A DNA stretch of 64,000 nucleotides, taken from assembly GCA_965242865.1 (NCBI GenBank), contig CBDETK010000013.1, positions 4,288,001 to 4,352,000 of the forward strand, in the 5' to 3' direction. This DNA is from Candidatus Latescibacterota bacterium (GTDB lineage Bacteria; Latescibacterota; UBA2968; UBA8231). Shown here one piece after another: positions 11,827-33,709 of the stretch. The notes beneath the pieces are model-generated. The model saw only the letters and a program-made list of their open reading frames with translations, was not told the DNA's origin and did not search any database. The position numbers and the translations under genes are program-made. Positions within the stretch are counted from its first letter, which is position 1; each line of letters starts with the position of its first letter.

Positions 11827-11859
11827 TGTAGTCCGTTGCTTTGCATAGGGAGAAAGAAT

Positions 11860-12360
11860 ATGGGATACCCAGCAAAAGCTATCGCCAACTATTTTCTGGA
11901 ACTAGCCGCCAAAGAGGGTGAGAAGATCACACCCCTCAAGATGCAAAAGCTAGTCTATATCGCTCACGGCTGGTATCTGGCTCTCTACGACGACCCCTTG
12001 GTTGACGACGAGTGTGCAGAAGCGTGGGAGTATGGTCCTGTTTTCCCCTCAATCTATCACGAGTTCAAGCATTTTGGCGGAGATCCCATCGCGGAACTAG
12101 CTGTTGATCTAGATTACAATGAGCTCTCAGAGGAATGGGAGGCCTGGAAGCCTCGCATTGACGGTAGAGACAAAAACACGCGGGCTTTCCTCAACCATAT
12201 CTGGAAACTGTACAAAGGTTTCACTGGAGGCCAATTATCTGCTTTAACCCATGAAGGAGGAACGCCTTGGGAGAAAACACGCAACGAAAAGGGGCGAATA
12301 AGAAACGCCCATATCGAGAATCAGGATATACAAGAATACTATAAAGGTCGTCTCAAATGA
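11860..12360 (+). CDS. Panacea-domain (DUF4065/SocA/GepA-like) antitoxin
   Basis: AIANYFL, ITPLKMQKLVYIAHGW, EAWEYGPV, LSALTH..GTPW. Confidence 0.9.
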   Translation: MGYPAKAIANYFLELAAKEGEKITPLKMQKLVYIAHGWYLALYDDPLVDDECAEAWEYGPVFPSIYHEFKHFGGDPIAELAVDLDYNELSEEWEAWKPRIDGRDKNTRAFLNHIWKLYKGFTGGQLSALTHEGGTPWEKTRNEKGRIRNAHIENQDIQEYYKGRLK

Positions 12361-12692
12361 CCATCGAGAATACAGAGGACTTCAAGCGAATCCCTACTGA
12401 AGACCCTTCAGAGGCCATGACACCCGAAGAATCTTTGCTTCGCCATGAGCGCCAGACACAGGCTCAAAACATAGGACGACTTGGTAAAATTTTCGGAAAC
12501 AAAGAGAATGCTCAAGGCTATCTCATTACAATTTTACTCCTAGCCTTTCTCATTCTATTGGCTGGACTAGCATACGTGGAATCTAGTATCCGAGCGGATC
12601 TAGCCAAAGGTCTTTTTACCCTCATGGCCTCTCTTGTAGGATACTTCGGGGGCAAAGCGGGCAGCAAAAATGGCGAGGCGTCCAAACCTTAA
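12357..12692 (+). CDS. Two-TM membrane protein, putative toxin partner of Panacea antitoxin 1
   Basis: ATGA overlap with the antitoxin; two hydrophobic segments (YLITILLLAFLILLAGLAYV; GLFTLMASLVGYFGG). Confidence 0.65.
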   Translation: MTIENTEDFKRIPTEDPSEAMTPEESLLRHERQTQAQNIGRLGKIFGNKENAQGYLITILLLAFLILLAGLAYVESSIRADLAKGLFTLMASLVGYFGGKAGSKNGEASKP

Positions 12693-15971: not shown

Positions 15972-16502
15972 ATGTATCCCTCTCTAGCAGTTGCTAATTA
16001 TTTCATTGATCTTGCTGAAAGAGATAATGAGCAAATAACGCCCATGAAGATGCAAAAATTGGTGTTCTTTGCTCATGGATGGCATCTTGCTTTTTATAAT
16101 GAACCTCTTATAAGGGAATACGTAGAGGCATGGACGTGGGGACCCGTTATTAGAGAACTGTACTTTGAGTTTCGCTGTTTTGGAAAAAGCCCAATTACGA
16201 AGAAAGGGATCACTTTCCAAGTCTCTGATTTCCTAGTCTTGGATTTTGAAACTCCGGAAATCGAGGATAAAGATGAAAAAGCCAAAGATACGATTAATGC
16301 CGTTTGGGAAGCTTATGGAAAGTACGATGGTTTAACTCTTGCAAATATGACACATGTAGAAGGAACTCCTTGGAAAGAGGTATGGGATAGCTTAGAAGAG
16401 CATGAGAAAGAGGGGATAGGCCCTAAATCCGTTGTGATAGACAATAAGATCATTAGAGATTACTTCTGTTCTCTTTTACAGAAGAGTCAAGGTACGGAAT
16501 AA
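15972..16502 (+). CDS. Second Panacea-domain (DUF4065) antitoxin
   Basis: AVANYFI, ITPMKMQKLVFFAHGW, EAWTWGPV, LANMTH.EGTPW; AT-rich. Confidence 0.9.
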   Translation: MYPSLAVANYFIDLAERDNEQITPMKMQKLVFFAHGWHLAFYNEPLIREYVEAWTWGPVIRELYFEFRCFGKSPITKKGITFQVSDFLVLDFETPEIEDKDEKAKDTINAVWEAYGKYDGLTLANMTHVEGTPWKEVWDSLEEHEKEGIGPKSVVIDNKIIRDYFCSLLQKSQGTE

Positions 16503-16951
16503 TGTCCTCTTCTAATAAAGCTGATCTTATACAGCAGTCGGTAGCTACATCGTCTCAAGAATCACATCACGAGGTTGATTCGAGCCTATATAATCAAGAA
16601 TTAAGCTTCCTCGACTTTCCCATGCCAGATCGGGCTATTGAAAAAATCGCCCTCCTTCAATTCAAACAAGACCTTGACGAACGGAAAAATTATGCAAAAA
16701 AAACATATCGACTTATCACTTATTCTCTACTTTTTATTCTTTTTATAACTTGTATGCACGGTTTTTCTCATTGGACTACATTTAAGGCATCTGATAATAT
16801 TTTATTGGCTTTAATTGGAGGCGTAACTGTAAACATATTGGGAACTTACTTCATTATCTTGAAGAATTTGTTCCCTCAATATCAAATCAAGGACTCCCTA
16901 ACCAAAGACTCTCTAAAGAAAATAATTGACGCCGCCTCTAGCTTGAAATAG
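16502..16951 (+). CDS. Two-TM membrane protein, putative toxin partner of Panacea antitoxin 2
   Basis: TAATG overlap; QDLDERKNYA helix followed by two hydrophobic segments ending KNLFP; very AT-rich. Confidence 0.65.
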   Translation: MSSSNKADLIQQSVATSSQESHHEVDSSLYNQELSFLDFPMPDRAIEKIALLQFKQDLDERKNYAKKTYRLITYSLLFILFITCMHGFSHWTTFKASDNILLALIGGVTVNILGTYFIILKNLFPQYQIKDSLTKDSLKKIIDAASSLK

Positions 16952-16979
16952 CGTCATTACCTCTATATAAATTTTACCT

Positions 16980-17333
16980 ATGAAAACCCTGCGTCCCGCA
17001 ACCACGTCTTTAGCCCTGCTGCTGGTCCTCGCCAGTAGCGGCGTACAGGTTTTCTGCGCTCCGGTCGCCGAGGCCGCGCCCATGGCCTGCCACGTCGCCA
17101 ATGCCTGCGGCGACGTGGGCCTGCAAGCAGGTTGTTGCTGTCTGCGCTCAGAAAATAGCGCGTCCCCTCAGTTCGTCCCCTTAGCCGAGCCGCCCTCGGT
17201 CCCCATGCCCTCGGGCGGCATGGCCGCGGCCGCTCCTGTGCTGCCTCGGTCGTCTGCGCTGGAGGTGCGGCCCAACCGCATTGCCCAGCCGCACCCCCCG
17301 CTCTTCCAGCTCTACTGTTCCTTCCTGATCTGA
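16980..17333 (+). CDS. Cys/Pro-rich exported leader protein upstream of the metal efflux operon (CutF/CruR-like, inferred)
   Basis: Signal-like N-terminus, CHVANAC and CCC, C-terminal QPHPPLFQLYCSFLI; TTGAAA-N17-TATAAA ends 8 nt before the ATG (near-leaderless). Confidence 0.7.
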   Translation: MKTLRPATTSLALLLVLASSGVQVFCAPVAEAAPMACHVANACGDVGLQAGCCCLRSENSASPQFVPLAEPPSVPMPSGGMAAAAPVLPRSSALEVRPNRIAQPHPPLFQLYCSFLI

Positions 17334-17416
17334 TCCTCGCCGCCCCGATTTCAGTCTCACACTCCACTCAATTTGCCGGGGCCGGTGCGCCAAGCTCGGC
17401 CCCCGTGCGGCGAGGA
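17334..17416 (+). promoter_or_regulatory. RBS-sequestering stem between leader ORF and cusC
   Basis: TCCTCGCCGC (17334-17343) is the exact reverse complement of GCGGCGAGGA (17407-17416), which covers most of the GAGGAG RBS; inner hairpin GGGGCCG/CGGCCCC. Confidence 0.65.
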
Positions 17417-17423
17417 GTATTGC

Positions 17424-18689
17424 ATGTCTAAAAATAGAACGGCCCTGCTGCTAGTCGGTCTGCTCGCAGGCCCGGTTTGGTCGCAGGAAGAAGCAGTGCT
17501 CGACCCCCGAGCCGAGCTCGCGGAGTACACGCGCTACGCCGAGCAGCACAACCCCCAGCTCAAGCAGGCTTTGGCGCGCTACAAAGCCGCCCTCGCAAAG
17601 GTGGCCCCGGCCAGTGCTTGGGCCGACCCGCGCCTGAGCTACGGCTATTTCGTGCGCCCGGTGGAGACGCGCACCGGCCCGCAAGAAATGCGCGTTAGCG
17701 CGGCGCAAACCTTCCCTTGGAAGGGCACGTTGGACCTCCAAGGGCAGATCGCCCAGCGAGAAGCCGAAGTTGAGGCCCACCGCTACGAGGCTGCGCGGCG
17801 GTCGCTGGTCTTTGAGGTCCAGGCCGCGTACTACGATTGCTACTTTTTGGCGCGCGCCATCGCCGTCACCGGGGGCAATGTGCGCCTGTTGTCTCACCTG
17901 GAAGAAGTGGGCCGCACCCGCTATCGCGGCGGCACCGGGGACCACGCGGCCGTGCTCAAGGCCCAGGTGGAATTGGGCCGCTTAGAAGATCAGCTCCGCA
18001 GCCTGCGTCAGCAGCAGCGTCCGACCTCGGCTCGGTTAAATGCGGCCCTCGGCCGCCGGGCGACCGCCCCAATAGCCGTGCCCGACTCGCTGCCCAAGGC
18101 CGCGTTGGAGCTAGACGAGGAGGTCCTAAAGGGCCGCTTGCGGTCCGCAAACCCAACGCTGCAAGTGCTGCAAGCACAAGCGCGGGCGCAGTCCCTCGGC
18201 GTCGAATTGGCCGGCAAGCGGTTCTACCCGGACCTAACGGTGAGTCTCGATTACATCCACATCGGAGCGGGCGGCGCGAACCCCCTGATGGCCATGGCGA
18301 CCGTCAACCTGCCCTTGTGGCGCTCGTCCTACAAAGCGAAAAAACGTGCGGCCAAGCTGAGCCATCAGGCCGCCTTGCAGGGCGTTGCAGACGCGGAAAA
18401 CAGGCTCATTGCCGAGCTGGAGTTGGCCCTGTATAAACAGCGCGACGCCCAAAGCCGCCGGGCACTCTACCGCGACAGCCTGCTGCCCAAGGCCGAACAG
18501 ATGCTCAACGTGACTCAACGCGCCTTTGCCGCGGACCGCAGCGATTTTTTAGCGGTCATCGACGCCCAACGCACCCTGCTAGCGTTCCAGCTAGCGTACG
18601 AACGCGCACACACCGACCAAGCCCTGCATTGGGCCGCGCTCGAAAAGCTGGTCGGCGCACTGGCAACCACAGAGGAAATCCACCCATGA
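17424..18689 (+). CDS. TolC-family outer-membrane factor of a heavy-metal RND system (CusC-like)
   Basis: Signal peptide, HNPQL, QTFPWKG, YPDL.V, NLPLW helical repeats; first gene of the CBA operon. Confidence 0.9.
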   Translation: MSKNRTALLLVGLLAGPVWSQEEAVLDPRAELAEYTRYAEQHNPQLKQALARYKAALAKVAPASAWADPRLSYGYFVRPVETRTGPQEMRVSAAQTFPWKGTLDLQGQIAQREAEVEAHRYEAARRSLVFEVQAAYYDCYFLARAIAVTGGNVRLLSHLEEVGRTRYRGGTGDHAAVLKAQVELGRLEDQLRSLRQQQRPTSARLNAALGRRATAPIAVPDSLPKAALELDEEVLKGRLRSANPTLQVLQAQARAQSLGVELAGKRFYPDLTVSLDYIHIGAGGANPLMAMATVNLPLWRSSYKAKKRAAKLSHQAALQGVADAENRLIAELELALYKQRDAQSRRALYRDSLLPKAEQMLNVTQRAFAADRSDFLAVIDAQRTLLAFQLAYERAHTDQALHWAALEKLVGALATTEEIHP

Positions 18690-20125
18690 AAGCGACAAAG
18701 CAAATAATGGCGACCGGCATCGCGGCCGGGATCGTCGGCTTGGCCGTGGGCTGGGAGTTGGGCGGCTCGGATGCCCCGCACGACCACGCCCCGGCGGCCG
18801 TTGCCGAGCAGGCCGAAACGTGGACCTGCTCAATGCACCCGCAGATCCGCCGGTCCGGGCCGGATCAGTGTCCAATCTGCGGGATGGACCTAATCCCAGT
18901 GACCGCGCCCGAGGAGGGCGACTCCTTGGCCCCGCGCCAGTTGCGCCTCTCGCTGGCCGCCCAGCAGTTGGCCAGCATCCAGACCGCGCCGGTCGAGCGT
19001 CGTGCCGCGCCGGTTGAGACGCGGATGGTTGGCAAGATCGCGGTCGACGAGACCCAAGTCCGCTCCATCACCGCGTGGGTCGCGGGCCGGATTGACCGGC
19101 TGTACGTGGACTACACGGGCGTGCGGGTCGAAGCGGGCGACCACATAGCCTATCTCTACAGTCCCGAGTTGTTGACCGCCCAAGAGGAGCTAATCCAAGC
19201 CCTGCGTGCCCGCGCCCGCGTCGCGTCGATTGGGCAGACCGCGCTGGTGGCGGCCGCGCGCGAAAAGCTGCGCTTGCTCGGACTGAAAGCGGAGCAAATC
19301 GAGCGCGTGGAGGACACCGGCCGCGCCTCCGACCAGCTAACGATCTACGCGCCCACCGGCGGCGTGGTCATAGAAAAGCATCTCAGCGAGGGCGCGTACG
19401 TGCAGACCGGGACGCCGATTTACACCATCGCAGACTTGTCGCGGCTGTGGCTAGATCTGCGCGCCTACGAGTCGGACCTGTCTTGGATCCACTACGGTCA
19501 AGCCGTCAAATTTTCGACCCAAGCCTATCCGGGTGAGGTGTTCACCGGCCAAATCTCTTTCATCGATCCCGTGCTGGACGAGCGCACGCGCACGGTGCGC
19601 GTGCGGGTCAACGTGGCGAATGAGCACGGTCGGCTGAAGCCGGGGATGCTGGTGTGGGCCGTGGCCCAAGCCGAGGTGGGGGCCAACGGACGCGCCCTGT
19701 CGCCCGCGCTCGTCGGCAAATGGATCAGCCCGATGCATCCTGAAATCGTCCGCGACCAGCCCGGCACCTGCGACATTTGCGGCATGGATCTAGTGCGCGC
19801 CGAAGAACTGGGCTATGGCACCGGCGACGAGGCGGGGCGCGAGCGACCGCTCGTGGTGCCGGCTTCGGCACCGCTGCTGACGGGCAAACGCGCCGTGGTG
19901 TACGTCGCGCTCGGCGAGGGCCTGTACGAGGGCCGCGAGGTCGTGCTCGGGCCGCGCGCCGGGGATTACTACTTGGTGCGCGAGGGCTTGCGCGAGGGCG
20001 AGCAAGTCGTAGTCAACGGCGCGTTCAAGATCGACAGTGCCCTCCAGATCCGCGCCCAGCCCAGTGCAATGTATCCAGCCGGCAGCGCGTCCTCCGCGCC
20101 CGAGCACCACCACGGAGGCCACTGA
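18686..20125 (+). CDS. cusB: CusB-like periplasmic adaptor with heavy-metal-binding domains
   Basis: WTCSMHPQI..CPICGMDL and WISPMHPEI..CDICGMDL; YSPELLTAQEE; LKPGM; His-rich tail. Confidence 0.9.
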   Translation: MKATKQIMATGIAAGIVGLAVGWELGGSDAPHDHAPAAVAEQAETWTCSMHPQIRRSGPDQCPICGMDLIPVTAPEEGDSLAPRQLRLSLAAQQLASIQTAPVERRAAPVETRMVGKIAVDETQVRSITAWVAGRIDRLYVDYTGVRVEAGDHIAYLYSPELLTAQEELIQALRARARVASIGQTALVAAAREKLRLLGLKAEQIERVEDTGRASDQLTIYAPTGGVVIEKHLSEGAYVQTGTPIYTIADLSRLWLDLRAYESDLSWIHYGQAVKFSTQAYPGEVFTGQISFIDPVLDERTRTVRVRVNVANEHGRLKPGMLVWAVAQAEVGANGRALSPALVGKWISPMHPEIVRDQPGTCDICGMDLVRAEELGYGTGDEAGRERPLVVPASAPLLTGKRAVVYVALGEGLYEGREVVLGPRAGDYYLVREGLREGEQVVVNGAFKIDSALQIRAQPSAMYPAGSASSAPEHHHGGH

Positions 20126-23100
20126 TGGAAGGGCAAAGCTCGCTACTCGACCGCGTGGTGCGCTTCTTTCTCACGCGCAAGTTGGTCGCCGCGATCATGC
20201 TGGTCGGCCTCGTGGCTTGGGGCCTTGCGGTCGCCCCCTTTGCTTGGGAACTGGCATGGCTGCCGCGCGACCCCGTGCCCGTAGATGCGATTCCAGACAT
20301 CGGCGAGAACCAACAGATCGTCTTCAGCGAGTGGCCGGGTCGCTCGCCGCAAGACGTGGAAGATCAGGTGACCTACCCGCTGACCACGGCGCTTTTGGGC
20401 GTCCCGGGCGTCGAGACGATCCGCAGCTTCTCGATGTTTGGCTTTTCGAGCATCTATGTGATTTTTGCCGAAGAGGTCGATTTTTATTGGTCGCGTTCCC
20501 GCATCCTCGAAAAACTCAACAGCCTGTCGGCCGGCCTCCTGCCCGAGGGCGTCCAGCCGGCCTTGGGGCCGGACGCAACGGCCTTGGGGCAGGTATTCTG
20601 GTACACCCTAGAGGGCCGCGACGAACAGGGTGCGCCCACCGGCGGCTGGGATTTGCACGAGCTGCGCCGCATTCAGGACTGGCAGGTGCGCTACGCCCTG
20701 TTGGCGGCCGAGGGGGTCAGCGAGGTGGCGTCTGTGGGCGGCTTCGTGCAGGAATACCAAATCGACGTCAATCCAGACGCATTGCGCGCTTATGGGGTGC
20801 AGCTCGACGAGGTCTTTCACGCGGTGCGCATGTCCAACCGGGATGTGGGGGCGCGCACGGTGGAACTGAATCGAGCCGAGTACGTCATCCGCGGCATCGG
20901 CTTTGTCAAAGGATTAGCCGATCTCGAAAACGCCGTCATTAAAGCGCGGAACAACGTCCCGATTTACGTCAAAAACGTCGCGCAGGTCGCGCTGGGGCCG
21001 GCGCTGCGGCGCGGCGCGTTGGACAAGGAAGGCGCGGAGGTGGTCGGCGGCGTGGTGGTGGCGCGCTTCGGCGCCAATCCGCTCGCGGCCATTGAAAGCG
21101 TCAAAGCCAAGATCGCAGAAATCGCCCCGAGCCTGCCCGCGAAAACCCTGCCCGACGGGCGGGTCAGCCAAGTGCAGGTGATCCCCTTTTACGATCGCGC
21201 CGGCTTGATCGAGGAGACGCTGGGCACGCTGGAACGCGCCCTGACCGAGGAGGTGCTGGTCACGGTGATCGTGGTGCTGGCCTTGGTGATGAACCTGCGC
21301 GGGGCCGTGCTGGTCTCCGGCCTGTTGCCGCTGGCCGTGCTCGCCTGCTTCGCCGCCATGAAGGTCTTTGGCATAGAAGCCAATATCGTCGCCCTGTCCG
21401 GCATTGCCATTGCCATCGGCACCATGGTCGACATGGGTATCGTCATCAGCGAGAACATCCTCAAGCACTTAGAGGATGCCGACGCCGAGGACGACCGCTT
21501 GGAAGTAGTCTTTCGCGCCACGCGCGAGGTCGGCGGGGCCGTGCTGACGGCCGTGCTCACCACGGTCGTAGGCTTTTTGCCGGTCTTCGCGATGGAAGGG
21601 GCCGAGGGCAAGCTCTTCGCGCCGCTGGCCTTTACCAAGACCTTTGCGCTGTTGGCCGCGGTGTGGCTGTCGCTGACGGCGTTGCCGGCCTTGGCGCACT
21701 GCGCGTTTGCCGTGCGCTTGCGGCGTTGGGCCCCGGGTCTTTGGGCCATCTGTGGCCTCGGGGTGGTCGTAACCCTGTCGGCGTGGGTCGGCCTGCTGCT
21801 AATCGCGATTGGGACGTATCACCTACTCGCCGCCCGCGTACCAGAGCGGGTGCGCTGGTGGGTGGCGCGAGGTGCTATCGCGGCTGCGGCCGGCGGGGTC
21901 GTCGCGGTGTTGGCCGAACACTGGTTGCCCCTAGGCCCGGAAAAGGGCGGCTGGCGCAATGTGCTCTTCGCCGCTGGATTGATCGGCGGCCTGTTGGCGT
22001 TTTTTCGCGTCTTACAAGGCGCGTTCCCCCGCGTGCTGCGGTGGTGCTTGGACCACAAGGGCTTGGCCCTGCTGTTCCCCGCGTTGCTGTTGCTGGCCGG
22101 GGCGTCCGCGTGGCTGGGGTTTGCCCGCGTCTTTGGCTTTATGCCGCCCTCCCTGCACAATACGACGCCTTTTGCGGCCCTCGCCGAGGCCCTGCCCGGG
22201 CTGGGCAAAGAGTTTATGCCTCCTCTCGACGAAGGGTCTTTCCTGTGGATGCCGACGACCATGCCCCACGCCTCCATCGGCGAGGTGCTCGACGTCCTGC
22301 AAAAGCAAAACGCGGCCATTGCGCAGATTCCCGAAGTGGAGTCGGCCGTGGGCAAGCTCGGCCGGGCGGAGACCCCGCTGGACCCCGCGCCGATTTCCAT
22401 GATTGAGACCATCGTCAACTACCGCGCGGAATACCTCACCGACGAGGCCGGTCGCCGCGCACTATTCGCTTTTGACGAGCGCGTCCCGGACCTGTTTCGC
22501 GCCCCCGATGGCACGCCCGCGCCCGCCCCGGATGGTGCGCCCTACACGGTGCCGGGCCGCTTTCTGCGCGACGAGGCCGACCGCCTCGTGCCCAGCGCAG
22601 ATGGGCGGCCTTTCCGCTTGTGGCGTCCGCCCTTGGACCCCGCGCTCAATCCGGGCCGGGCGGCTTGGCCGGGGATCCAAAGCCCGGACGATATATGGGC
22701 GGCGATCGCCCGGGCCGGCCAGATTCCCGGCTCTACTTCGGCGCCGAAGTTGCAGCCGATTGCCGCGCGGCTCGTCATGTTGCAGAGCGGGATGCGTGCG
22801 CCCATGGGCCTTGAGATCAAAGGCCCTAGCTTGGCGGCCATTGAGCGCGCCGGCTTGGCGCTGGAGCGCTTGCTCAAGGAAGTGCCCGGGGTCGAGGCCG
22901 CGACCGTGAACGCCGACCGCATCATCGGCAAGCCCTACTTGGAGATTCACATCAACCGCGAGGCCATTGCTCGCCACGGCATCCCCCTGCAAAAGGTGCA
23001 GGACGTAATTGAGATCGCCATCGGGGGCAAGCTGGTCACCACCACGGTGGAAGGCCGCGAGCGCTATCCCGTGCGAGTGCGCTACCTGCGCGAATTGCGC

Positions 23101-23985
23101 GACAGCGTCGAGGAGCTGGTGCGGATTCTGGTGCCCGCGCCGGACGGGGCGCAGATTCCCTTGGGCGAGCTGGCCGAGATTCGCTATGTGCGCGGCCCCC
23201 AAGTCATCAAGAGCGAGGACACGTTTTTGCTAGGCTATGTGCTCTTCGACAAGAAGCCGGGGTACGCCGAAGTCGAGGTGGTGGAAGCGTGTCGAGCGCA
23301 TTTGGCCAGCAAACGGGCCAGCGGCGATCTCGTGCTGGAGACCGGCGTCAGCTATACCTTCGCCGGTAGCTACGAAAACCAGTTGCGGGCGCAGAAGAAG
23401 CTCAACGTGCTGCTGCCGCTCGCGCTGGCGACGATCTTCCTCATCCTCTATTTCCAGTTTGGCAACGCGGCCACGGCGCTGATGGTCTTTTCCGGGGTTG
23501 CGGTGGCTTGGGCTGGCGGCTTTGCCATGTTGTGGCTCTACGGGCAGGAATGGTTTTTGGATTGCTCGGTCTTTGGCACGGAGCTGCGCGCCCTCTTCCA
23601 CGTCCGTCCCTTGAACTTGAGCGTGGCCGTGTGGGTGGGTTTTCTCGCGTTGTTTGGCATTGCCTCGGACAACGGCGTGATCGCGGCGACCTATCTGGGC
23701 CAAGTCTTCCGTACGCAAAAGCCAGCGACTGTCGAGGCGATTCGCCGCGCCGCGCTCGCCGCTGGGGTGCGGCGAATCCGCCCCTGTCTGATGACGGCAG
23801 CCACCACGATCTTGGCGCTGATCCCCGTGCTGACGGCGAGTGGACGCGGCGCAGACCTCATGCTGCCGATGGCCATTCCCACCTTCGGCGGCATGATTGC
23901 GGTGGTGCTGACCGCGCCGATTGTGCCGGTGCTCTACTGCGCGGTCGAGGAGTGGAAGCTGCGTTTTAGGCGAGCTCGCGGGTGA
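20125..23985 (+). CDS. cusA: CusA/CzcA-family Cu/Ag RND efflux transporter
   Basis: VDAIPDIGENQQIV, VEDQVTYPL, GIAIAIGTMVD, EFMPPLDEG, GFLALFGIA, RIRPCLMT; ATG at 20125 overlaps the cusB stop. Confidence 0.94.
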   Translation: MEGQSSLLDRVVRFFLTRKLVAAIMLVGLVAWGLAVAPFAWELAWLPRDPVPVDAIPDIGENQQIVFSEWPGRSPQDVEDQVTYPLTTALLGVPGVETIRSFSMFGFSSIYVIFAEEVDFYWSRSRILEKLNSLSAGLLPEGVQPALGPDATALGQVFWYTLEGRDEQGAPTGGWDLHELRRIQDWQVRYALLAAEGVSEVASVGGFVQEYQIDVNPDALRAYGVQLDEVFHAVRMSNRDVGARTVELNRAEYVIRGIGFVKGLADLENAVIKARNNVPIYVKNVAQVALGPALRRGALDKEGAEVVGGVVVARFGANPLAAIESVKAKIAEIAPSLPAKTLPDGRVSQVQVIPFYDRAGLIEETLGTLERALTEEVLVTVIVVLALVMNLRGAVLVSGLLPLAVLACFAAMKVFGIEANIVALSGIAIAIGTMVDMGIVISENILKHLEDADAEDDRLEVVFRATREVGGAVLTAVLTTVVGFLPVFAMEGAEGKLFAPLAFTKTFALLAAVWLSLTALPALAHCAFAVRLRRWAPGLWAICGLGVVVTLSAWVGLLLIAIGTYHLLAARVPERVRWWVARGAIAAAAGGVVAVLAEHWLPLGPEKGGWRNVLFAAGLIGGLLAFFRVLQGAFPRVLRWCLDHKGLALLFPALLLLAGASAWLGFARVFGFMPPSLHNTTPFAALAEALPGLGKEFMPPLDEGSFLWMPTTMPHASIGEVLDVLQKQNAAIAQIPEVESAVGKLGRAETPLDPAPISMIETIVNYRAEYLTDEAGRRALFAFDERVPDLFRAPDGTPAPAPDGAPYTVPGRFLRDEADRLVPSADGRPFRLWRPPLDPALNPGRAAWPGIQSPDDIWAAIARAGQIPGSTSAPKLQPIAARLVMLQSGMRAPMGLEIKGPSLAAIERAGLALERLLKEVPGVEAATVNADRIIGKPYLEIHINREAIARHGIPLQKVQDVIEIAIGGKLVTTTVEGRERYPVRVRYLRELRDSVEELVRILVPAPDGAQIPLGELAEIRYVRGPQVIKSEDTFLLGYVLFDKKPGYAEVEVVEACRAHLASKRASGDLVLETGVSYTFAGSYENQLRAQKKLNVLLPLALATIFLILYFQFGNAATALMVFSGVAVAWAGGFAMLWLYGQEWFLDCSVFGTELRALFHVRPLNLSVAVWVGFLALFGIASDNGVIAATYLGQVFRTQKPATVEAIRRAALAAGVRRIRPCLMTAATTILALIPVLTASGRGADLMLPMAIPTFGGMIAVVLTAPIVPVLYCAVEEWKLRFRRARG

Positions 23986-24289
23986 GAGGGACAGTTTTCG
24001 TTGGTAAGGGTGTTAGATATGTAGTAGCGGCACGAAGGCAGAGCCGCAGGAGAACGGAGGAAGGCCAGTGTCCGGCGCGATCCTGATTTATGAGACTGCC
24101 TTGGCTAAAAAAATCGTTAGGGGTTGACAGGGATCACAGGGTAGAGGAGGTTTTAATCAGATGAGAACCTCGTTGCTTTGATGCCTTTTGCATCTCTTCC
24201 GTTCTTGACAGTCCTTCGGTCGGGAATCCGACGGGTTCGCAATTTGGGTTTTACCCAGATTGTCCACAGGATATAGCTTGGAGTGTAGC

Positions 24290-26050
24290 ATGGGCAAAGC
24301 TGAAAATGGCCGGAACGGTCTCGTATTTCCTTCAAAAGACGACTCTTACTCAGAAGAACTGAAACAGCACCTTCAAGATGCTGGTTTCTGCGAGGCGGAT
24401 CAGAGGTGGCTAGTACAAGTCTTTGAACGTCCCGACTGTTTTGGCGACTCTGATTCTAATAGTGCCTCTATCTTCAAAGATGGTTTTGAGGACAGTTTTG
24501 AATATGTCCTGCCCAACATCTTGAAAGGCTTAAAAGGAGAAGGACAAGTTCAGATTGAGAAAGAGAAAGATCGTCAAACCCGCTTGGCATTTCTTTTTAG
24601 TGCTATGCTTGGCTTTGGACCTGGGTATTTAGGTGAGACGATTCAGCCCAATGCTAAGCCTGTGGGATCGGACGGCGTCTGGGATGTTCCGCAATGGGCT
24701 GACGAGTTTCAAAGGCAGGCAAAATTTTGCGCTGAGCGTTTGGATTGGAACAGACTAAAGTCGTCTATTCATAAACTTGATAATTTGCTTCGATTTCTTT
24801 TTCCAAATGGTATGCCTTTAGTAAAGGTCGTTGATCTCAGCCCCTTGGATCCGATTCAACGACGAAGCTGGTCCAGCGATGATTTTGAAGATCCCAAACA
24901 GCTCGAATTCTGGTTGATCCAGCGATTTCGTTCAGGCACAGACCATAGCAGCACAATCCGCTTAGATACGTTACTGGAACATTTTTCCGATGTGCCAGAA
25001 GATGTTTTAGGCGGTAAGATTCTCGGACTCTTGAATGCTATTGGTTATGCCTTGAATATGGCCGGTTTAGATTACCTGAGTGACGGATGGCGGGTTGTTG
25101 CACGCGAGTTAATTCCATTCTTGGAACTTTTGGACGAGAAAGAACCAGAGTCGAAACAGGAACGCTCCCCATTGACTAAAGCTTGGTGGCGATTAGCCAA
25201 GATAATTTACAGCGGGAGTATCGGCGGCTTGGAATCTGAACTCTCTCCAGAACTGAGAAATCGGCTCGTCGAAAGTGCCGCTAGGCATATCGGAATGTTG
25301 CGGGCGGTGTTGCGGGATAGCCCAAAAGTATTTGAGGAGGAAAATTCGACCGGAGAAGTGTGCGATTTTTACAGAAAGGCATTTGATGTTTTGCTGAATT
25401 TTGCCGACCCGTGGAAACGCCTGAAGCCTTTATTGCTAGCGTTTACGGAGATGAATGTGCCGGCCGTTACATCCGATCTTCGCCCTTGGGGCGAACTTGG
25501 AAGAGAGGCCCCTCCTCATCCGTATAGTAAAATACCTCTGTGGATCGAAATCGCCATGTATCCTCAGAACCTGCGGGCAGAACTGGACCGAGATCCGCAC
25601 TTGCAGGATTTGCGTGAAGAGCTCGCCAAGTTTTGCCTTGGATGGCTCAAAACCCAAAAAAACGACACAAATGCCAATCGTGAAGAGCTTGTAGAACCTC
25701 GGCCTATATGGCGGCAGTGCTACGTACAGGCATTGACGGTTCTGCGCGTTAATCCCGGCGGGAGGGCTCATAGAACGTTGTTTTGGCTCTCTAAAAATGA
25801 TCCCGATGAAGAGTGCCGAAAATTGGCTAAAAGGGCACATAGACAGATTCGGCATATAGACCGGAGAAAACCGAATTTAGAGCGTGGTGCATCGCCTCGT
25901 CGTCCCCTATTTGAGGCGTTTTGGTGGCTTCGCCAAGCTCACCTTTTGACTCTTGGAAAAGAAATTGATGAGGCTGGTGCTATGCGAACACGTCGAAAAG
26001 AACTGCATCGAACAAGAGAGAAAGAGGATCGTCTCAATTGGAAAGTATAG
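24290..26050 (+). CDS. Hypothetical alpha-helical protein (586 aa) with HEAT-like C-terminal segment
   Basis: Long ORF in a lower-GC tract, RBS GGAG; LFWLSKNDPDEECRKLAKRA resembles a HEAT repeat; no family recognised. Confidence 0.7.
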   Translation: MGKAENGRNGLVFPSKDDSYSEELKQHLQDAGFCEADQRWLVQVFERPDCFGDSDSNSASIFKDGFEDSFEYVLPNILKGLKGEGQVQIEKEKDRQTRLAFLFSAMLGFGPGYLGETIQPNAKPVGSDGVWDVPQWADEFQRQAKFCAERLDWNRLKSSIHKLDNLLRFLFPNGMPLVKVVDLSPLDPIQRRSWSSDDFEDPKQLEFWLIQRFRSGTDHSSTIRLDTLLEHFSDVPEDVLGGKILGLLNAIGYALNMAGLDYLSDGWRVVARELIPFLELLDEKEPESKQERSPLTKAWWRLAKIIYSGSIGGLESELSPELRNRLVESAARHIGMLRAVLRDSPKVFEEENSTGEVCDFYRKAFDVLLNFADPWKRLKPLLLAFTEMNVPAVTSDLRPWGELGREAPPHPYSKIPLWIEIAMYPQNLRAELDRDPHLQDLREELAKFCLGWLKTQKNDTNANREELVEPRPIWRQCYVQALTVLRVNPGGRAHRTLFWLSKNDPDEECRKLAKRAHRQIRHIDRRKPNLERGASPRRPLFEAFWWLRQAHLLTLGKEIDEAGAMRTRRKELHRTREKEDRLNWKV

Positions 26051-26096
26051 TGTTCCCGTGAGACGATGAATTCCCACGAGAAAGGAGGTGATCGAG

Positions 26097-26267
26097 ATGG
26101 CTAAATCCCATAGCGGAGGCGGTAAAGCTGGTGCTGACAATCGCGCCAATCAGTTGAACCCCAATAACGATGTTTATTGGCAAGAGCGAGGCCACAAGCA
26201 GAGGCCCGATGATTGGGAATCGCGTAAAAGTCAAGGCCAGCAGAACCCCAAAGACAAGGGCAAGTGA
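26097..26267 (+). CDS. Small 56-aa protein with DNRANQLNPNN..YWQ.RG...RPDDW motif (not in ORF track)
   Basis: Strong RBS AAAGGAGGTG 6 nt before ATG; MAKSHSGGGKAGADNRANQLNPNNDVYWQERGHKQRPDDWESRKSQGQQNPKDKGK; followed by a hairpin. Confidence 0.8.
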   Translation: MAKSHSGGGKAGADNRANQLNPNNDVYWQERGHKQRPDDWESRKSQGQQNPKDKGK

Positions 26268-26274
26268 TTGAGTA

Positions 26275-26317
26275 GTAGGGGGTGACCGCTGTATTTCTTT
26301 TAATGGTCGCCCCCTAC
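26275..26317. terminator. GTAG-bounded hairpin (REP-like or terminator)
   Basis: GTAGGGGGTGACC / GGTCGCCCCCTAC 13-bp stem with one G-U pair and a 17-nt loop. Confidence 0.55.
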
Positions 26318-26474
26318 CAATCCGCCTCATACTTGTTTTTCTCGATGCGTCGCACTTCGCGGCTCAATAGTCGCATTCTGATCCTTTTAGGATCGTGCTA
26401 TGACGCGCTTTTCAAGACACTAGCAGGGCGATATAGGATCGTCCCTGTGAGATCAATTGTGAAAAGGAGAAGTC

Positions 26475-28031
26475 ATGATCAAGCTACATTTCTTTGGAGG
26501 TGCCAACGAGGTTGGTGCTTCCTGTACGTTAGTCGAGATCGACGGATACCGTATTCTGGTAGATGCAGGCATTCGAATGGGACTTGAGAAAAGTTCAAAG
26601 TACCCTGATTTCGATGCTTTGGACAAACCCGATGCTCTACTGTTGACCCACGCTCATAGCGACCACACGGTTACTCTGCCTGTGCTTGCACAGAAGAACA
26701 GGTTGCCCGAAAAGGTGTACTGTACGCCTGTGACGCGAGAGATTGCATGGGTGCTGTTAGACGATGCTGTGAAACGGGAAGAGCGTGAGTCGCCTGAGCT
26801 ACCTGAGTACACTTTTAACGATGTTCGTGAAGCCTTAAGCCGCATGGAGTTGGTGAAGTGGATGAGACCCGTACCGATATGCGATGGCGTGACAGCTACG
26901 TGGATTCGCGCCGGTCACATTTTGGGCGCGGCAATGATCTATATCCAGGGCAAGCGGGAAAGTATTCTGATGACAGGTGATGTATCGACTGCCGATCAGT
27001 TGACTATTCCCGGCATGGTTATTCCAGAGCAGTGTCGTCCCGATGTGGTAGTGATGGAATCGACTTACGGCAATCGCCGACATAAAAATCGCGCACAACA
27101 AGAAGCTGCGCTTGTACGGGATGTGGCCAAGGTGGTTAAAGCAGGAGGCAAAGTGCTAATCCCAGCGTTTGCCGTGGCCCGTTCTCAGGAGGTCATTCAG
27201 CTCTTGAAACGGAAGCAGATTCCGGTGTACGTTGATGGGATGGTGCAAAAGGTCAATGAGGTATATTCGCGTTTTGTTCGTGATCTCTCGCCGTCCTTGC
27301 AATACAAAGCGAAAGACGGTGAGGATATTTTTTACTCATCTTTCGTGGAGAAGGTGAATCCAAACAAGCGCGATAGCATTTTGTCTGGGTCTCCCTGTTG
27401 TATTGTGGCGTCTTCGGGGATGCTGAACGGTGGTATGTCGAATTATTACGCCAAGCGTTTAGCTGGTGATCCGAAGAATCTGATCGCAATTACGGGTTAT
27501 CAGGCTGAAGGAACTCCTGGCCGCAAGTTGCAGGATGAGCATGTCCTGAATCTTGATGGACAGGAGGTGAGGGTAAAATGCAAAGTGAAGCGATACTCTC
27601 TTTCGGCTCACGCGGATCAGAAAGAACTGACGGAATTGGTCGAGAAACTGAATCCGCACACATGCTTTCTCGTACACGGTGATGACCCCGCGAGGAAGAA
27701 CTTAGCTGAATCCGTGCGAAAAAGGTCTCCGGCTGTGGATGTGCAACTCCCCGAAAATAACGGCGAATATACCTACACTAAACGAGCAGGCATTGCAGAA
27801 GGAAGACGGCTCCGTCTTGACAATCTCTCTGAGGTATATGCCTATCTGATGGCAAGAGGAGCGAAGGGGCCATTTCGCGTGCGAGAATTGGCCGAGATAT
27901 GGTTTGGAACAGAGAGGACGACGCTAAAAAAAGAGAAGCTGTTTGGGTTGCTTTTAGCGTTGGATTGGCAAACGCTTTTTGTACGAGACAGCCAATCACC
28001 CGATCTGTTCCGTTTGAGACGAACTGTTTAA
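26475..28031 (+). CDS. Metallo-beta-lactamase beta-CASP family nuclease (Ysh1/CPSF-73-like)
   Basis: GGANEVGAS, VDAG, THAHSDH, AGHILG, TGD, MESTYG, ASSGML.GG, GYQAEGT, SAHAD, VHGD; C-terminal extension. Confidence 0.92.
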   Translation: MIKLHFFGGANEVGASCTLVEIDGYRILVDAGIRMGLEKSSKYPDFDALDKPDALLLTHAHSDHTVTLPVLAQKNRLPEKVYCTPVTREIAWVLLDDAVKREERESPELPEYTFNDVREALSRMELVKWMRPVPICDGVTATWIRAGHILGAAMIYIQGKRESILMTGDVSTADQLTIPGMVIPEQCRPDVVVMESTYGNRRHKNRAQQEAALVRDVAKVVKAGGKVLIPAFAVARSQEVIQLLKRKQIPVYVDGMVQKVNEVYSRFVRDLSPSLQYKAKDGEDIFYSSFVEKVNPNKRDSILSGSPCCIVASSGMLNGGMSNYYAKRLAGDPKNLIAITGYQAEGTPGRKLQDEHVLNLDGQEVRVKCKVKRYSLSAHADQKELTELVEKLNPHTCFLVHGDDPARKNLAESVRKRSPAVDVQLPENNGEYTYTKRAGIAEGRRLRLDNLSEVYAYLMARGAKGPFRVRELAEIWFGTERTTLKKEKLFGLLLALDWQTLFVRDSQSPDLFRLRRTV

Positions 28032-28049
28032 GCGCAGTTCAGAACCTGA

Positions 28050-28090
28050 AGAAGTGCCCCGGCAAAAGCTGTCGGGGCACTTCTCATTTT
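28050..28090 (+). terminator. Intrinsic terminator
   Basis: AGAAGTGCCCCGGCA / TGTCGGGGCACTTCT stem followed by CATTTT. Confidence 0.75.
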
Positions 28091-28163
28091 ATAGCAGAGA
28101 TAATCTTGCCAGCAATGGGGATTCCAAAAAGATCACCGCGCCGTTTCTACTCCTGTGAATACG

Positions 28164-30940: not shown

Positions 30941-31435
30941 ATGACGTTGCGAATTCTGTTGGTGGGCGCGCTTTTTTTGGGGGGGGTGGTTGCCGAAGAG
31001 GGGGGGGCGCGGAGCAAGCGCGTGAGGCAGGTTCCCAATGGCTCGGCCGCGAGCTGCAACACCTGCCACACGGCGGGCAGTGGATCGCCGCTCAATCCGT
31101 TTGGCGTGGAGACCCTAAATTTCCTCACCTCGGCTGGTCCCGCCGGGGACGTGATTTGGGGGCCAGTGCTGGCGGCCTTGGACTCTGATGGCGACGGCGC
31201 GGCCAATGGCGCGGAACTGGGCGACCCCGACGGCACTTGGGTGGTGGGCGATCCCAATCCCGAAGGGACGCACGACGATGACGTAAAGGAAGACCCCGAC
31301 GAAGGCGATTCTACCGCCGGGCAGGTGTTCAATCCCGGCGATCCCGACAGCACCCCGCCGCTCGCGCCGCACGACACGGCGGTTGGGGAAGCGACTTGGG
31401 CATGGATCAAGCAGCGGCTGGACGCCCTCGACTGA
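30941..31435 (+). CDS. Secreted CxxCH (c-type heme) protein with temptin-like DSDGDG..NG.ELGDP domain and C-terminal W-x-x-I-K tail
   Basis: RBS AAGGAGG, signal peptide, CNTCH, NPFG, LDSDGDGAANGAELGDPDG, tail TAVGEATWAWIKQRLD. Confidence 0.75.
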   Translation: MTLRILLVGALFLGGVVAEEGGARSKRVRQVPNGSAASCNTCHTAGSGSPLNPFGVETLNFLTSAGPAGDVIWGPVLAALDSDGDGAANGAELGDPDGTWVVGDPNPEGTHDDDVKEDPDEGDSTAGQVFNPGDPDSTPPLAPHDTAVGEATWAWIKQRLDALD

Positions 31436-31477
31436 GGCGGGGCGGATGCGGCGGTTGAGTTGCGAGGTGGCAAGGTG

Positions 31478-33709
31478 ATGGAAAACAGCAGAGAGCAGCA
31501 TTTCGCCATTGAGGGCATGCACTGCGCGGGCTGCGTGCGGCAGGTCGAGCAGCAGGTGGCTGGTTTGGCCGGCGTGGAACAGGCCGACGTGAACTTGGCG
31601 ACCGAGCAGATGGCCGTGCGCTTTGACCCGGCGGCTGTAGATGAGGAAAGCATTGCCGCGGCCGTGGCAAAAGCGGGGTTTGCGGCGCGGCTGCAAGCAT
31701 CCGAAGCCGAAGGGGCCGCTAGGCGTCAGGCGCGCAAGCAGGCCGCGCTCGCCGCGCAGGCCGGGGCCTTGCGGTGGGCGGCTGCGTTTTGGCTGCCGCT
31801 CTTCGCGGTGGAGATGGCCGAGCAGCTGGGCGCATCGCTGGCAGCCCTGTCCTTGGCCCAGCATCCGTTGCGGGTGGGCGTTTTGCACCTGCTGTTGGTG
31901 CTGCCGGTGCTGTGGGTGGGCCGCTCGATTTACGTTGAGGGGGGACAGGCTTTGTGGCGCGGTCGCCCCAACATGTTTTCGCTAATCGCCATTGGCACGG
32001 CCGCGGCTTGGCTCTACAGTGCTTGGGGGTTGGGGACCGTCGTCGTGGGGGTCGCCGCGGAGTTTGACTCCTATTTCCCGTCGGTTGCCACGATCGTCTC
32101 CTTTATGCTGATGGGCCGCTATCTCGAAGCGCGGTCGCGGTTGCGGGCCGAGGAGGCGATAGGTGCTCTGCTGCAACTCAAACCCGACACGGCGATGCTC
32201 GTCACCGGCGATGGAACGCGAGAAATTGCAGCCGACGCCATTGCGGTGGGCGACTGCCTGCGCGTGCGCCCGGGCGAGCGCGTCCCCGCCGATGGCGAAG
32301 TCGTCGAAGGAAGTTCTACGGTGGATGAGTCCCTGCTGACCGGCGAGTCGCTGCCGGTGGCCAAGGCCCCGGGCGATGCCGTCACCGGCGGCAGCCTCAA
32401 CGGCGCGGGTGCGCTCGTGGTGCGGGCAACGCGCCGGGCCGAGGACGCGCTGCTAATGCAAATGGTGCGCTTAGTCGAAGCCGCACAGGCCGGCAAGGCA
32501 CCGATTGCCCGCCTAGCCGATGTGGTAGCCGGGTATTTTGTACCGGCCGTACTGGCCCTAGGCCTAGTGGCGGCCGGGGGTTGGCTGTGGGCCGGGGAGA
32601 GCGTGAGCTTTGCGTTGCAGGTTTTCGTGGCCGTGTTGATCATCGCCTGCCCGTGTAGCTTGGGCTTGGCCACGCCGGCCGCCATTATGGTCGGCACGGG
32701 CCGGGGCGCGCATTTGGGCATCTTGTTCAAAAGCCCGGAAGTGCTGGAAACAGCGCACAAAACAGATGCCGTGGTGCTGGACAAAACCGGCACCGTCACC
32801 GAGGGGCGGCCGCAGGTGGTGGGAGTAGAGCCGCTAAACGGAGGCCGCGCCGACGAGGTGCTGCGCTTGGCCGCGGCCGTGGAGCGCGGCTCCGAGCATC
32901 CGCTGGCCGCGGCGATTGTGACTGCCGCCGCCGAGCGGGGCTTGGCCGTGCCAAAGGCGAGCGAAGTGGTGGCGAGCCCGGGCCAAGGGGCGCGGGCCGA
33001 GGTGGAAGGCGCGGCCGTGGCGGTGGGCAATCGCGCCATGATGGCAACGGAGGGTATTCGCCTAGACGAAGACAGCGATCCGGCGGCCACGGCCACGGTC
33101 GCGTGGGTCGCAGCCGCTGGATCGCTGGTCGGCCGGGTGTCTTTGGCCGACCGTCCCCGCCCGCAGAGCAAGGACGACGTGGCTCGATTGCGCCGAGGCG
33201 GCTTGGAGGTGGTAATGCTCACGGGCGACAGTCGTCCGGCCGCGGAGGCCGTGGCGCGTCAAGTGGGGATTGGAACCGTACATGCCGAGGTCTTGCCCGC
33301 AGACAAGGCGGCGGTTGTGCGGGCCTTGCAGGCCGAGGGCCGTTGCGTAGCCATGGTCGGCGATGGGATCAACGACGCGCCGGCACTGGCCGCGGCCGAT
33401 GTGGGCATGGCCTTTGCCACGGGGACGGATGTGGCGGCCGCGTCGGCGCCCGTGGTGCTCATGCACAGTCGGTTGGCGGATGTGGCGCGTGCGCTTGAAC
33501 TGAGCCGAGCGGTTGTGCGGACCATAAAGCAGAATTTGTTCTGGGCATTTTTTTACAACGCCGCGGGCATTCCAGTGGCCGCGGGCGCGCTGTACCTATT
33601 CGGCGGCCCGTTGCTCAATCCGATGCTGGCGAGCTTGGCGATGGCCTTTTCGTCGGTGTCCGTGGTGATGAACGCGCTCCGGTTGCGGCGCTTTGCTCAA
33701 AGCCGCTGA
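31478..33709 (+). CDS. copA: Cu(I)/Ag(I)-transporting P1B-type ATPase
   Basis: [34 protein letters not shown] and MAFSS motifs. Confidence 0.95.

Follow-up and report, generated by a model that had tools for sequence, protein, structure and literature searches.

A conserved upstream reading frame and a Shine-Dalgarno-masking helix as a putative translational gate ahead of a cusCBA-like efflux operon in Latescibacterota

Introduction

How can a copper and silver efflux pump be controlled when no metal-responsive regulator gene is found near it? The question is raised by a 64,000-nucleotide stretch of the genome of a Candidatus Latescibacterota bacterium (contig CBDETK010000013.1, positions 4,288,001 to 4,352,000 of the forward strand; hereafter the window), in which an operon resembling cusCBA is directly preceded by a small upstream open reading frame (uORF). 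The uORF encodes a 117-residue protein, P0001, and its stop codon is followed at once by a segment complementary to the ribosome-binding site of the first pump gene. The analyses below indicate that the uORF and the resulting RNA helix are a real, conserved device ahead of a Cu/Ag pump of the resistance-nodulation-division (RND) type, CutF-like in its working and not a detectable member of the DUF2946 family. The reading we favor, with a probability of about 0.45, is a uORF-dependent translational gate whose peptide would be exported and act, like CutF, as a metal sensor or arrest peptide, with a C-terminal motif that is new.

CutF of Rhodobacter capsulatus is the precedent for such a device. 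As portrayed in the published accounts, besides a Sec signal it has CxxxC and, at its C-terminus, a PPP/Pro-rich stalling motif; Cu binding during co-translational export prolongs the stall, and the ribosome melts a stem-loop that masks cutO's Shine-Dalgarno (SD) sequence (PMC9973294; 10.1101/2025.02.05.636593). According to the survey portion of one of these accounts, genes for the outer-membrane efflux protein (OEP) of RND pumps are the commonest downstream neighbor of rule-defined CutF-like genes (Ozturk et al. 2023, PMC9973294), so that the general idea pursued here has already been printed as a prediction.

Results

A predicted helix that starts right after the uORF stop codon covers the SD of the pump operon

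The uORF spans 16980..17333 on the + strand, from an ATG to a TGA stop at 17331–17333. The ten nucleotides that start at the first base past the stop, TCCTCGCCGC (17334..17343, + strand), are the exact reverse complement of GCGGCGAGGA (17407..17416, + strand), which overlaps the SD, GAGGAG (17412–17417), located 6 nt ahead of the ATG of the cusC-like gene at 17424. The perfect 10-nt pairing between the post-stop bases and the cusC ribosome-binding site, noted in the preliminary description of this DNA, is therefore real. On both strands of the window the helix 10-mer occurs three times, two of them being the two arms, against 0.29 occurrences expected. The stop-proximal window also outperformed 440 of 440 control windows from the neighborhood in binding the SD, and controls that bound the SD equally well numbered 0/440, 0/440, 2/440 and 3/440. 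Given the 10-mer counts and the 440-window control, chance does not account for the helix. In the minimum free energy (MFE) fold of 17320–17440, the helix closes a domain containing an inner hairpin (17375..17406, + strand, defined from folds and pair counting), with an energy of −41.8 kcal/mol and a z-score of −2.75.

A search of genome contigs identified 26 loci carrying the uORF, 24 of them close (66–81% identity) and two distant (L025 and L026; 34%). The close loci belong to metagenome-assembled genomes labelled Latescibacterota or, in some cases, Gemmatimonadetes/-ota. Comparative folds, running from the stop codon to ATG+12, were computed for the window and the 24 close (species-level) loci. 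In all 25 MFE structures the ten post-stop nucleotides are paired with the SD region, across spacers of 90–187 nt that carry unrelated inserts. The 5′ arm begins at the first post-stop base in every one of them, whether the stop is TGA (21 sequences) or TAA (four). Consistently, RNAalifold recovered the closing helix without guidance from a MAFFT alignment, and 98.8% of its cells were paired by pair counting. When folding was extended from 200 nt upstream to ATG+60 in a partition-function calculation, at least 8.3 of the 10 helix pairs were expected in 23 of the 25 sequences. One locus (L022) has a lengthened 5′ arm together with a T-to-G change in the 3′ arm, giving a helix of about 12–13 bp with one mismatch. 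The inner hairpin covaries, with double-sided changes at 4 of its 11 pairs (UA to CG in six sequences, GC to AU in three). A scan of 16800–17600 against Rfam at E ≤ 1 returned nothing.

The loop closed by the helix holds two further features. A C/A-rich tract, AGTCTCACACTCCACTCAATTTGC (17353..17376, + strand), is nearly invariant in the alignment and predicted to be single-stranded, being unpaired in the folds. The tract and its equivalents in 23 loci are G-poor and separate the variable portion of the spacer from the inner hairpin; an ACTCC within the tract is complementary to the SD. The tract may be a standby site, a rut-like Rho loading site or an alternative partner of the SD. Long hairpins built from runs of GACCACT / CCACTGA heptamer repeats occur in the loop at three loci (approximately L014:6370–6480, L015:6370–6475 and L022:6375–6440), and may represent a small repeat element that tolerates or targets the spacer.

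The P0001 C-terminus is under extreme selection at the peptide level

P0001 begins with a signal-peptide-like segment read from the sequence (residues 1–32, 16980..17075, + strand), in which K2 and R5 precede a hydrophobic stretch (L11–A18) and A30-E-A32. It is followed by a Cys cluster seen in the alignment (17088..17141, + strand) that comprises C37-x5-C43 (C37-H-V-A-N-A-C43) and C52-C53-C54, then by a Pro/Ala/Ser-rich linker (17142..17294, + strand), poorly conserved in sequence and conserved in length, and finally by the dodecapeptide P106-P-L-F-Q-L-Y-C-S-F-L-I117 (17295..17330, + strand), a candidate arrest or pausing module. The protein thus ends in Q-P-H-P-P-L-F-Q-L-Y-C-S-F-L-I (PPLFQLYCSFLI / QPHPPLFQLYCSFLI), with a single PP at residues 106–107, ten non-proline residues after it and no RAPP motif. 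The 117-residue frame with a signal-like N-terminus, CHVANAC, CCC and a Pro-rich end that had been described earlier is thus borne out, as is the claimed lack of RAPP.

Substitution rates were estimated by the Nei-Gojobori method for the window and 23 loci; L017 was left out since a contig end cuts its N-terminus. The dN/dS ratio was 0.31 for the whole uORF, 0.26 for the signal region, 0.28 for the Cys region and 0.45 for the linker, and fell to 0.03 for the last 12 codons (dS 0.31). Among 26 sequences, synonymous variants were present at nine of the ten final codon positions, against a single non-synonymous change. This pattern indicates selection on the peptide rather than on the RNA, and the C-terminal dodecapeptide is under extreme peptide-level selection. 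P-P-L-F-Q-L-Y-C-S-F-L-I is identical even where overall identity is 34%. G21, C37, C52–54, L108, L116 and I117 do not vary among 27 aligned members, and the most distant members follow the consensus L-[FY]-x-[LMF]-x-x-[SAC]-[FYL]-L-I-stop with Cys113 replaced by H, N or S. Despite indels and near-unalignable sequence in the linker, the distance from CCC to the C-terminus is 63–70 residues in 17 of 17 members. In many relatives a C-A-P-C sequence closes the signal region; the window copy is without its second Cys. AlphaFold2, run with a shallow family alignment of 27 sequences, predicted a sole helix at residues 5–19, the signal helix (mean pLDDT 52.8), and no secondary structure in the linker (pLDDT about 45–50).

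The uORF is a real, conserved gene family that always stands ahead of an operon for an OEP, a membrane fusion protein (MFP) and an RND pump. A word-indexed search returned 55 relatives, each at least 65% identical to P0001. Profile searches gave just 20 proteins at E ≤ 0.001 among 1.84 billion representatives, and 70 clusters in a 5.8-billion set, none with a Pfam domain and every named one 'hypothetical'. P0001 and its relatives matched no family in Pfam or NCBIfam; a CD59 match of two members (E = 0.0058) was attributed to chance, arising from Cys content. Searching 72,556 plasmids with P0001 by tblastn gave no match. A language-model neighbor search returned unnamed clusters only, with weak leads to DUF8199, DUF6769, DUF2946 and DUF6660 (scores of 0.93–0.94, few shared features); one neighbor cluster, in which 23% of members carry DUF2946, was a similarly weak lead (score 0.93, 106 of 256 shared features). 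A literature search that used neither the motif itself nor the phylum name as a term found no paper describing the motif or the family. DUF2946 (PF11162) was also compared directly: P0001 gave no match at E ≤ 0.01, and sets of 21 and 27 family members gave none at E ≤ 10, while the positive control CzcI matched weakly (E = 0.026).

Other interpretations of the frame were considered and rejected. An antisense frame at 16978–17367 was treated as spurious, the synonymous-site pattern fitting the + frame. An internal start at Met35, from which gene callers had begun 30 of the 55 database entries (annotated as only 82–85 residues), was discarded; the N-terminal 34 residues are in frame in all sufficiently long loci, with the low dN/dS of the signal region. 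A lipoprotein is excluded by the replacement of the Cys after the hydrophobic run by Ser or Gly in the window copy and one relative. A ribosomally synthesized and post-translationally modified peptide (RiPP) precursor or a PEP-CTERM-like sorting signal was rejected, there being no maturation genes nearby and no match to an NCBIfam sorting domain; the hydrophobic end is just 10 residues long and has no basic tail.

The downstream operon encodes a CusA-like pump and no metal regulator is found nearby

Three + strand genes follow the uORF. The first (17424..18689) encodes a CusC-like outer-membrane efflux protein of the OEP/TolC family (PF02321) and the second (18629..20125, longest frame) a CusB-like adaptor with HMBD domains (HlyD_D23), both assigned by domain match. 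The third (20137..23985, start approximate) encodes a CusA-like heavy-metal efflux (HME) RND pump (TIGR00914), assigned by domain and PDB match. The OEP is 80–87% identical across the 24 close loci and collinear from residue 1. The best solved relative of the RND protein is E. coli CusA, at 600 bits versus 406 for ZneA, and all three residues of the CusA Met triad, which we take to be Met573, Met623 and Met672 (numbers that agree with a 7-residue chain offset), align to Met in the window protein. The best match to CusA and the aligned triad make 'cusCBA-like' a fair label, and the earlier naming of the operon stands. The window pump is longer than E. coli CusA (1282 versus 1047–1054 residues), and its residues ~520–685 and 764–844 do not align to CusA.

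Domain scans found no MerR/CueR, CsoR or two-component domain in the 31 reading frames of at least 110 residues between 1 and 46.7 kb of the window, nor in 12 small intergenic frames and one 164-residue frame between 8 and 36.5 kb. Within the window frames scanned, the preliminary observation that no CueR, CsoR or CusRS gene is nearby is upheld. A second metal-related locus, a heavy-metal P-type ATPase with an HMA domain (31460–33709), lies 7.5 kb beyond the pump, and is preceded by a gene (30941–31435) for a secreted-looking 164-residue protein with a Temptin_C domain and a C-N-T-C-H motif.

The gene order is conserved and the upstream junction is variable

The order p369, ferrochelatase, p238, uORF, OEP, adaptor and RND is kept wherever the contig allows. 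Across loci the uORF is 66–81% identical, versus 75–96% for its neighbors. In the window an A+T-rich SocA/Panacea module lies between p238 and the uORF, and is present in none of the 26 related loci. This module (15972–16951, about 38% G+C) comprises a SocA/Panacea antitoxin-like gene (15972–16502) and an overlapping 149-residue frame of no known family with hydrophobic stretches, and takes the place of the upstream block found before the uORF elsewhere. A second SocA/Panacea gene (11836–12360), with an overlapping 111-residue frame of no family, lies in a lower-G+C segment, and the region 11836–12692 resembles a further copy of this type of two-gene module.

In the window, 28 nt separate the preceding stop codon from the uORF ATG; they contain a TATA-like run and no SD, and no site ahead of this uORF copy emerged from a sigma-70 promoter scan. 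The upstream region of related loci is different and longer. In most of L001–L024, at ~30–110 nt upstream of the uORF, it carries a block of TTGAAA, 17 nt, TAGTCT and a hairpin (CTCGGC...GCCGAG), with about 15 nt lacking an SD between hairpin and ATG. The block is missing from the window copy, L005, L014 and L019, and may serve the uORF as its native promoter and leader. At L021, p238 (2–400) and the uORF (6001) are about 5.6 kb apart, versus ~70–300 nt in most loci, and the p238–uORF junction may be a recurrent insertion site, as in L021 and the window. Beyond the operon, a low-G+C island (24000–28100; 47–50% against ~65% around it) contains genes for a 596-residue protein of no family (24260–26050) and a beta-CASP/metallo-beta-lactamase RNase-like protein (26475–28031).

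Discussion

A model for the gate

Pump translation probably, and on good evidence, depends on the arrival of a ribosome at the uORF stop codon. In unoccupied mRNA, the cusC-like gene would have its SD locked in the 10-bp, G+C-rich helix with the ten post-stop nucleotides as partner. A ribosome with the uORF stop in its A site would keep these nucleotides in its mRNA channel, and only such a ribosome would free the SD for a second one. When a bacterial ribosome has a stop codon in its A site, it covers the mRNA as far as about +15, counted from the first P-site nucleotide, and unwinds it at about +11. The 5′ arm opens with the five nucleotides of the anti-SD core, U[C/U]CUC (UCCUC in the window), which fall at +7 to +11, so that a stop-codon ribosome would free precisely the SD. 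From the PP codons, 30–33 nt further upstream, a ribosome would not reach the helix.

Given the gate, we put the chance that the P0001 C-terminus acts within the ribosomal exit tunnel at about even. While the ribosome is on the PP codons, the ten residues that follow PP have still to be made; their conservation therefore needs a role that begins once they are synthesized, whether in the tunnel with the ribosome at the stop codon or after release of the peptide. We think that tunnel action best explains four findings taken as a whole: the invariance at the peptide level, the ruler-like linker, the disorder predicted by AlphaFold2 and the precise position of the helix. Most likely the last 12 residues would slow termination or release from inside the tunnel, and the linker would hold CCC at its set distance, such that the triplet would at that moment be emerging on the periplasmic side of SecYEG. 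By analogy with CutF, Cu(I) or Ag(I) on the emerging thiols would then lengthen the pause and turn on pump translation without a transcription factor. If arrest occurs, its modulation by metal is quite probable; the case for metal sensing is built on invariant thiols, a Cu/Ag pump, the failure to find a regulator nearby and the analogy. Of the model, it is the pausing or arrest, the role of metal as ligand and the direction of control that we infer. The most specific form of the model is a new exported leader-peptide family in which a non-proline L-F-x-L-x-x-S-phi-L-I motif (phi, hydrophobic) arrests the ribosome at termination, the ruler sets CCC at the periplasmic mouth of SecYEG at that point and periplasmic Cu(I)/Ag(I) is read out directly as an opened cusC ribosome-binding site; we hold it to be possible, though less likely than not. 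It would amount to regulator-free, transmembrane translational control of an RND efflux pump by a new class of arrest motif. A Rho-dependent layer on top of the gate is possible.

Relation to known leader peptides

The likeness to CutF, as that system is depicted in the sources cited above, is extensive. Both are reading frames of fewer than 150 residues directly ahead of a periplasmic copper-defence gene, with a Sec-type signal (putative in P0001), a Cys motif in the exported part and a conserved C-terminal motif containing PP. Both have a stem-loop masking the downstream SD, which is opened in CutF, and would be opened here, by a ribosome held at the end of the uORF; at the window locus such a stem-loop is present within reach of that ribosome. 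Both have a defined spacing between Cys and C-terminal motif, although it is 45 residues in CutF and 63–70 here. In contrast to CxxxC, the putative metal motif of P0001 is CCC plus C-x5-C, and its PP lies 11–12 residues before the end and is followed by the invariant non-proline decapeptide, so that a stall, if any, would have to occur on or beside the stop codon rather than on PPP. The closing helix of the P0001 locus is long-range, around a variable domain of 63–160 nt, and its target is an RND pump, unlike the multicopper oxidase controlled by CutF. P0001 passes the four CutF-like rules of Ozturk et al. (117 residues, a signal-like N-terminus, PP at −12/−11 and an OEP gene 90 nt downstream), although the published set, as its description has it, additionally required jackhmmer recovery from CutF seeds. 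The preliminary proposal of a distinct PPL-x4-C-x-FLI class holds only in part: the motif was drawn too narrowly, with Cys replaced in distant members, and the four rules do not set P0001 apart.

CruR of Bordetella pertussis, a DUF2946 protein encoded upstream of bfrG, resembles P0001 as a Cys-containing uORF product heading a copper-related operon, with a C>G-rich 3′ end and a poorly structured peptide (PMC9426467). It differs, in the account given there, in having CXXC and a RAPP motif three residues from the end, and in acting by Rho-dependent termination, independently of the signal peptide and with copper relieving the stall (PMC9426467). The P0001 locus instead combines the absence of RAPP with an SD-masking helix. 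CzcI of Cupriavidus metallidurans is likewise a small signal-like frame directly upstream of an HME-RND operon, czcCBA, and is described as having no terminal Pro motif (PMC9973294). Alignment of P0001 with CzcI from pMOL30 nevertheless gave an hhalign probability of 1.8% over 15 columns, in the hydrophobic N-terminus alone; the weak DUF2946 match of CzcI has no counterpart in the P0001 family, and the czc locus has its own CzcRS two-component system.

Arrest peptides include SecM, VemP and MifM, which sense secretion or ligands, and TnaC and SpeFL, which act at the termination stage. The constrained C-terminal segment of P0001 has about the length from the peptidyl-transferase center to the constriction and is likewise selected at the peptide level. 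As in those systems, a stalled ribosome would remodel the downstream mRNA so that the next gene is expressed, and an N-terminal export signal would couple the stall to translocation. The P0001 motif is unrelated to theirs, its target is a metal pump rather than the secretion machinery, and its arrest is a prediction.

Evidence against the model and competing explanations

Several observations weigh against the model. The preliminary description had proposed anti-SD/SD covariation as a check: the helix is conserved in 25 of 25 close sequences, but double-sided covariation was found at none of its 10 pairs, four being invariant, four changing on one side only (always C to U or U to C opposite G, as for every change in the 5′ arm) and two showing isolated mismatches. 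Both arms are almost invariant, and the 3′ arm, which is the SD, is constrained regardless of pairing. Long-context ensembles are weak for L002 (4.4 of 10 pairs expected) and L014 (1.2 of 10). Independent confirmation of the architecture was sought in the distant clade and proved not robust: in L025 and L026 the SD pairs with the last uORF codons in short-context folds only (z = −1.3 and −0.4), this pairing is matched by 57/440 and 131/381 control windows, and in long context it vanishes, with 0.8 and 0.6 of 12 pairs expected. The predicted disorder of P0001 comes from the shallow alignment noted above, and export, metal binding and stalling are themselves predictions. To our knowledge no arrest peptide has this motif, and its C-terminal residue is Ile, not Pro. 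Finally, if any terminating ribosome can open the helix, plain coupling suffices and neither arrest nor metal is needed.

Such unregulated coupling is the strongest competitor, though we rate it a distinctly smaller chance than the regulated gate. Each ribosome finishing the uORF would briefly open the helix, pump synthesis would be tied to uORF translation at a low, fixed ratio, and the released peptide would be functional, as a Cu/Ag-binding accessory protein or chaperone of the pump, with its invariant hydrophobic C-terminus serving as a docking motif or as a tag for PDZ proteases or degradation (phi-x-phi-COOH). The geometry of the helix suits any terminating ribosome and the Cys cluster is conserved. 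The S-F-L-I-COOH end resembles the hydrophobic C-terminal ligands of PDZ proteases. PMC9973294 discusses regulatory or accessory roles for the small CzcI-type proteins encoded upstream of czcCBA. For the C-terminus, docking or degradation signalling after release of the peptide is a serious rival to action in the tunnel. Against unregulated coupling, no folded domain is predicted, 12 invariant residues exceed the needs of a C-terminal tag, and a linker conserved in length and free in sequence is better explained by a co-translational ruler; P0001 is, as said, unrelated to CzcI by hhalign or to any Pfam or NCBIfam family.

A CruR-like attenuator, in which the C-rich, G-poor end of the uORF and the spacer load Rho, ribosome occupancy at the uORF end decides termination before the cusC-like gene and the helix is secondary, appears improbable as the main output. 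The strongest 78-nt C>G window was near the end of the uORF in 12 of the 12 sequences examined (from 27, the window and 26 loci), beginning 57–81 nt before the stop (C 36–53%, G 9–15%) and stopping about 15–18 nt past it, just upstream of the AGTCTCACACTCCACTCAATTTGC tract, which is itself conserved and unpaired; CruR, as portrayed in PMC9426467, offers the precedent. However, the C excess stems largely from the Pro, Leu, Ser and Phe codons of the conserved peptide, long structured G-rich inserts are present in the spacers of several loci (L002, L014, L015), and the SD-masking helix is the most conserved RNA feature. Least probable is a reading in which the helix serves mRNA stability or processing, or arises as a by-product of conserved sequence, and the uORF encodes an unrelated small secreted protein, its translation having no functional link to cusC: the missing double-sided covariation and the lack of a robust equivalent in the distant clade would fit, but the 5′ arm adjoins the stop codon in 25 of 25 sequences and pairs with the SD core, the helix is kept across very different spacers and compensated by extension in L022, and control windows bind the SD less well.

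Implications

Were plain coupling all there is, the locus would be an ordinary, though neat, example of translational coupling. If the regulated gate is correct, the CutF/CruR principle, a nascent exported peptide as metal sensor, would extend to a family unrelated in sequence, to a pump of the tripartite RND type and to a phylum that is uncultured and little studied. P0001 would also provide a new arrest motif, one that must work at the stop codon rather than on a run of prolines. With a linker of conserved length and an anti-SD lying precisely within the mRNA channel of a ribosome at termination, it would offer an unusually clean natural design for studying how events outside the membrane are relayed to the peptidyl-transferase center. 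For the organism, the device would explain how a Cu/Ag pump can be controlled with no CusRS- or CueR-type regulator nearby.

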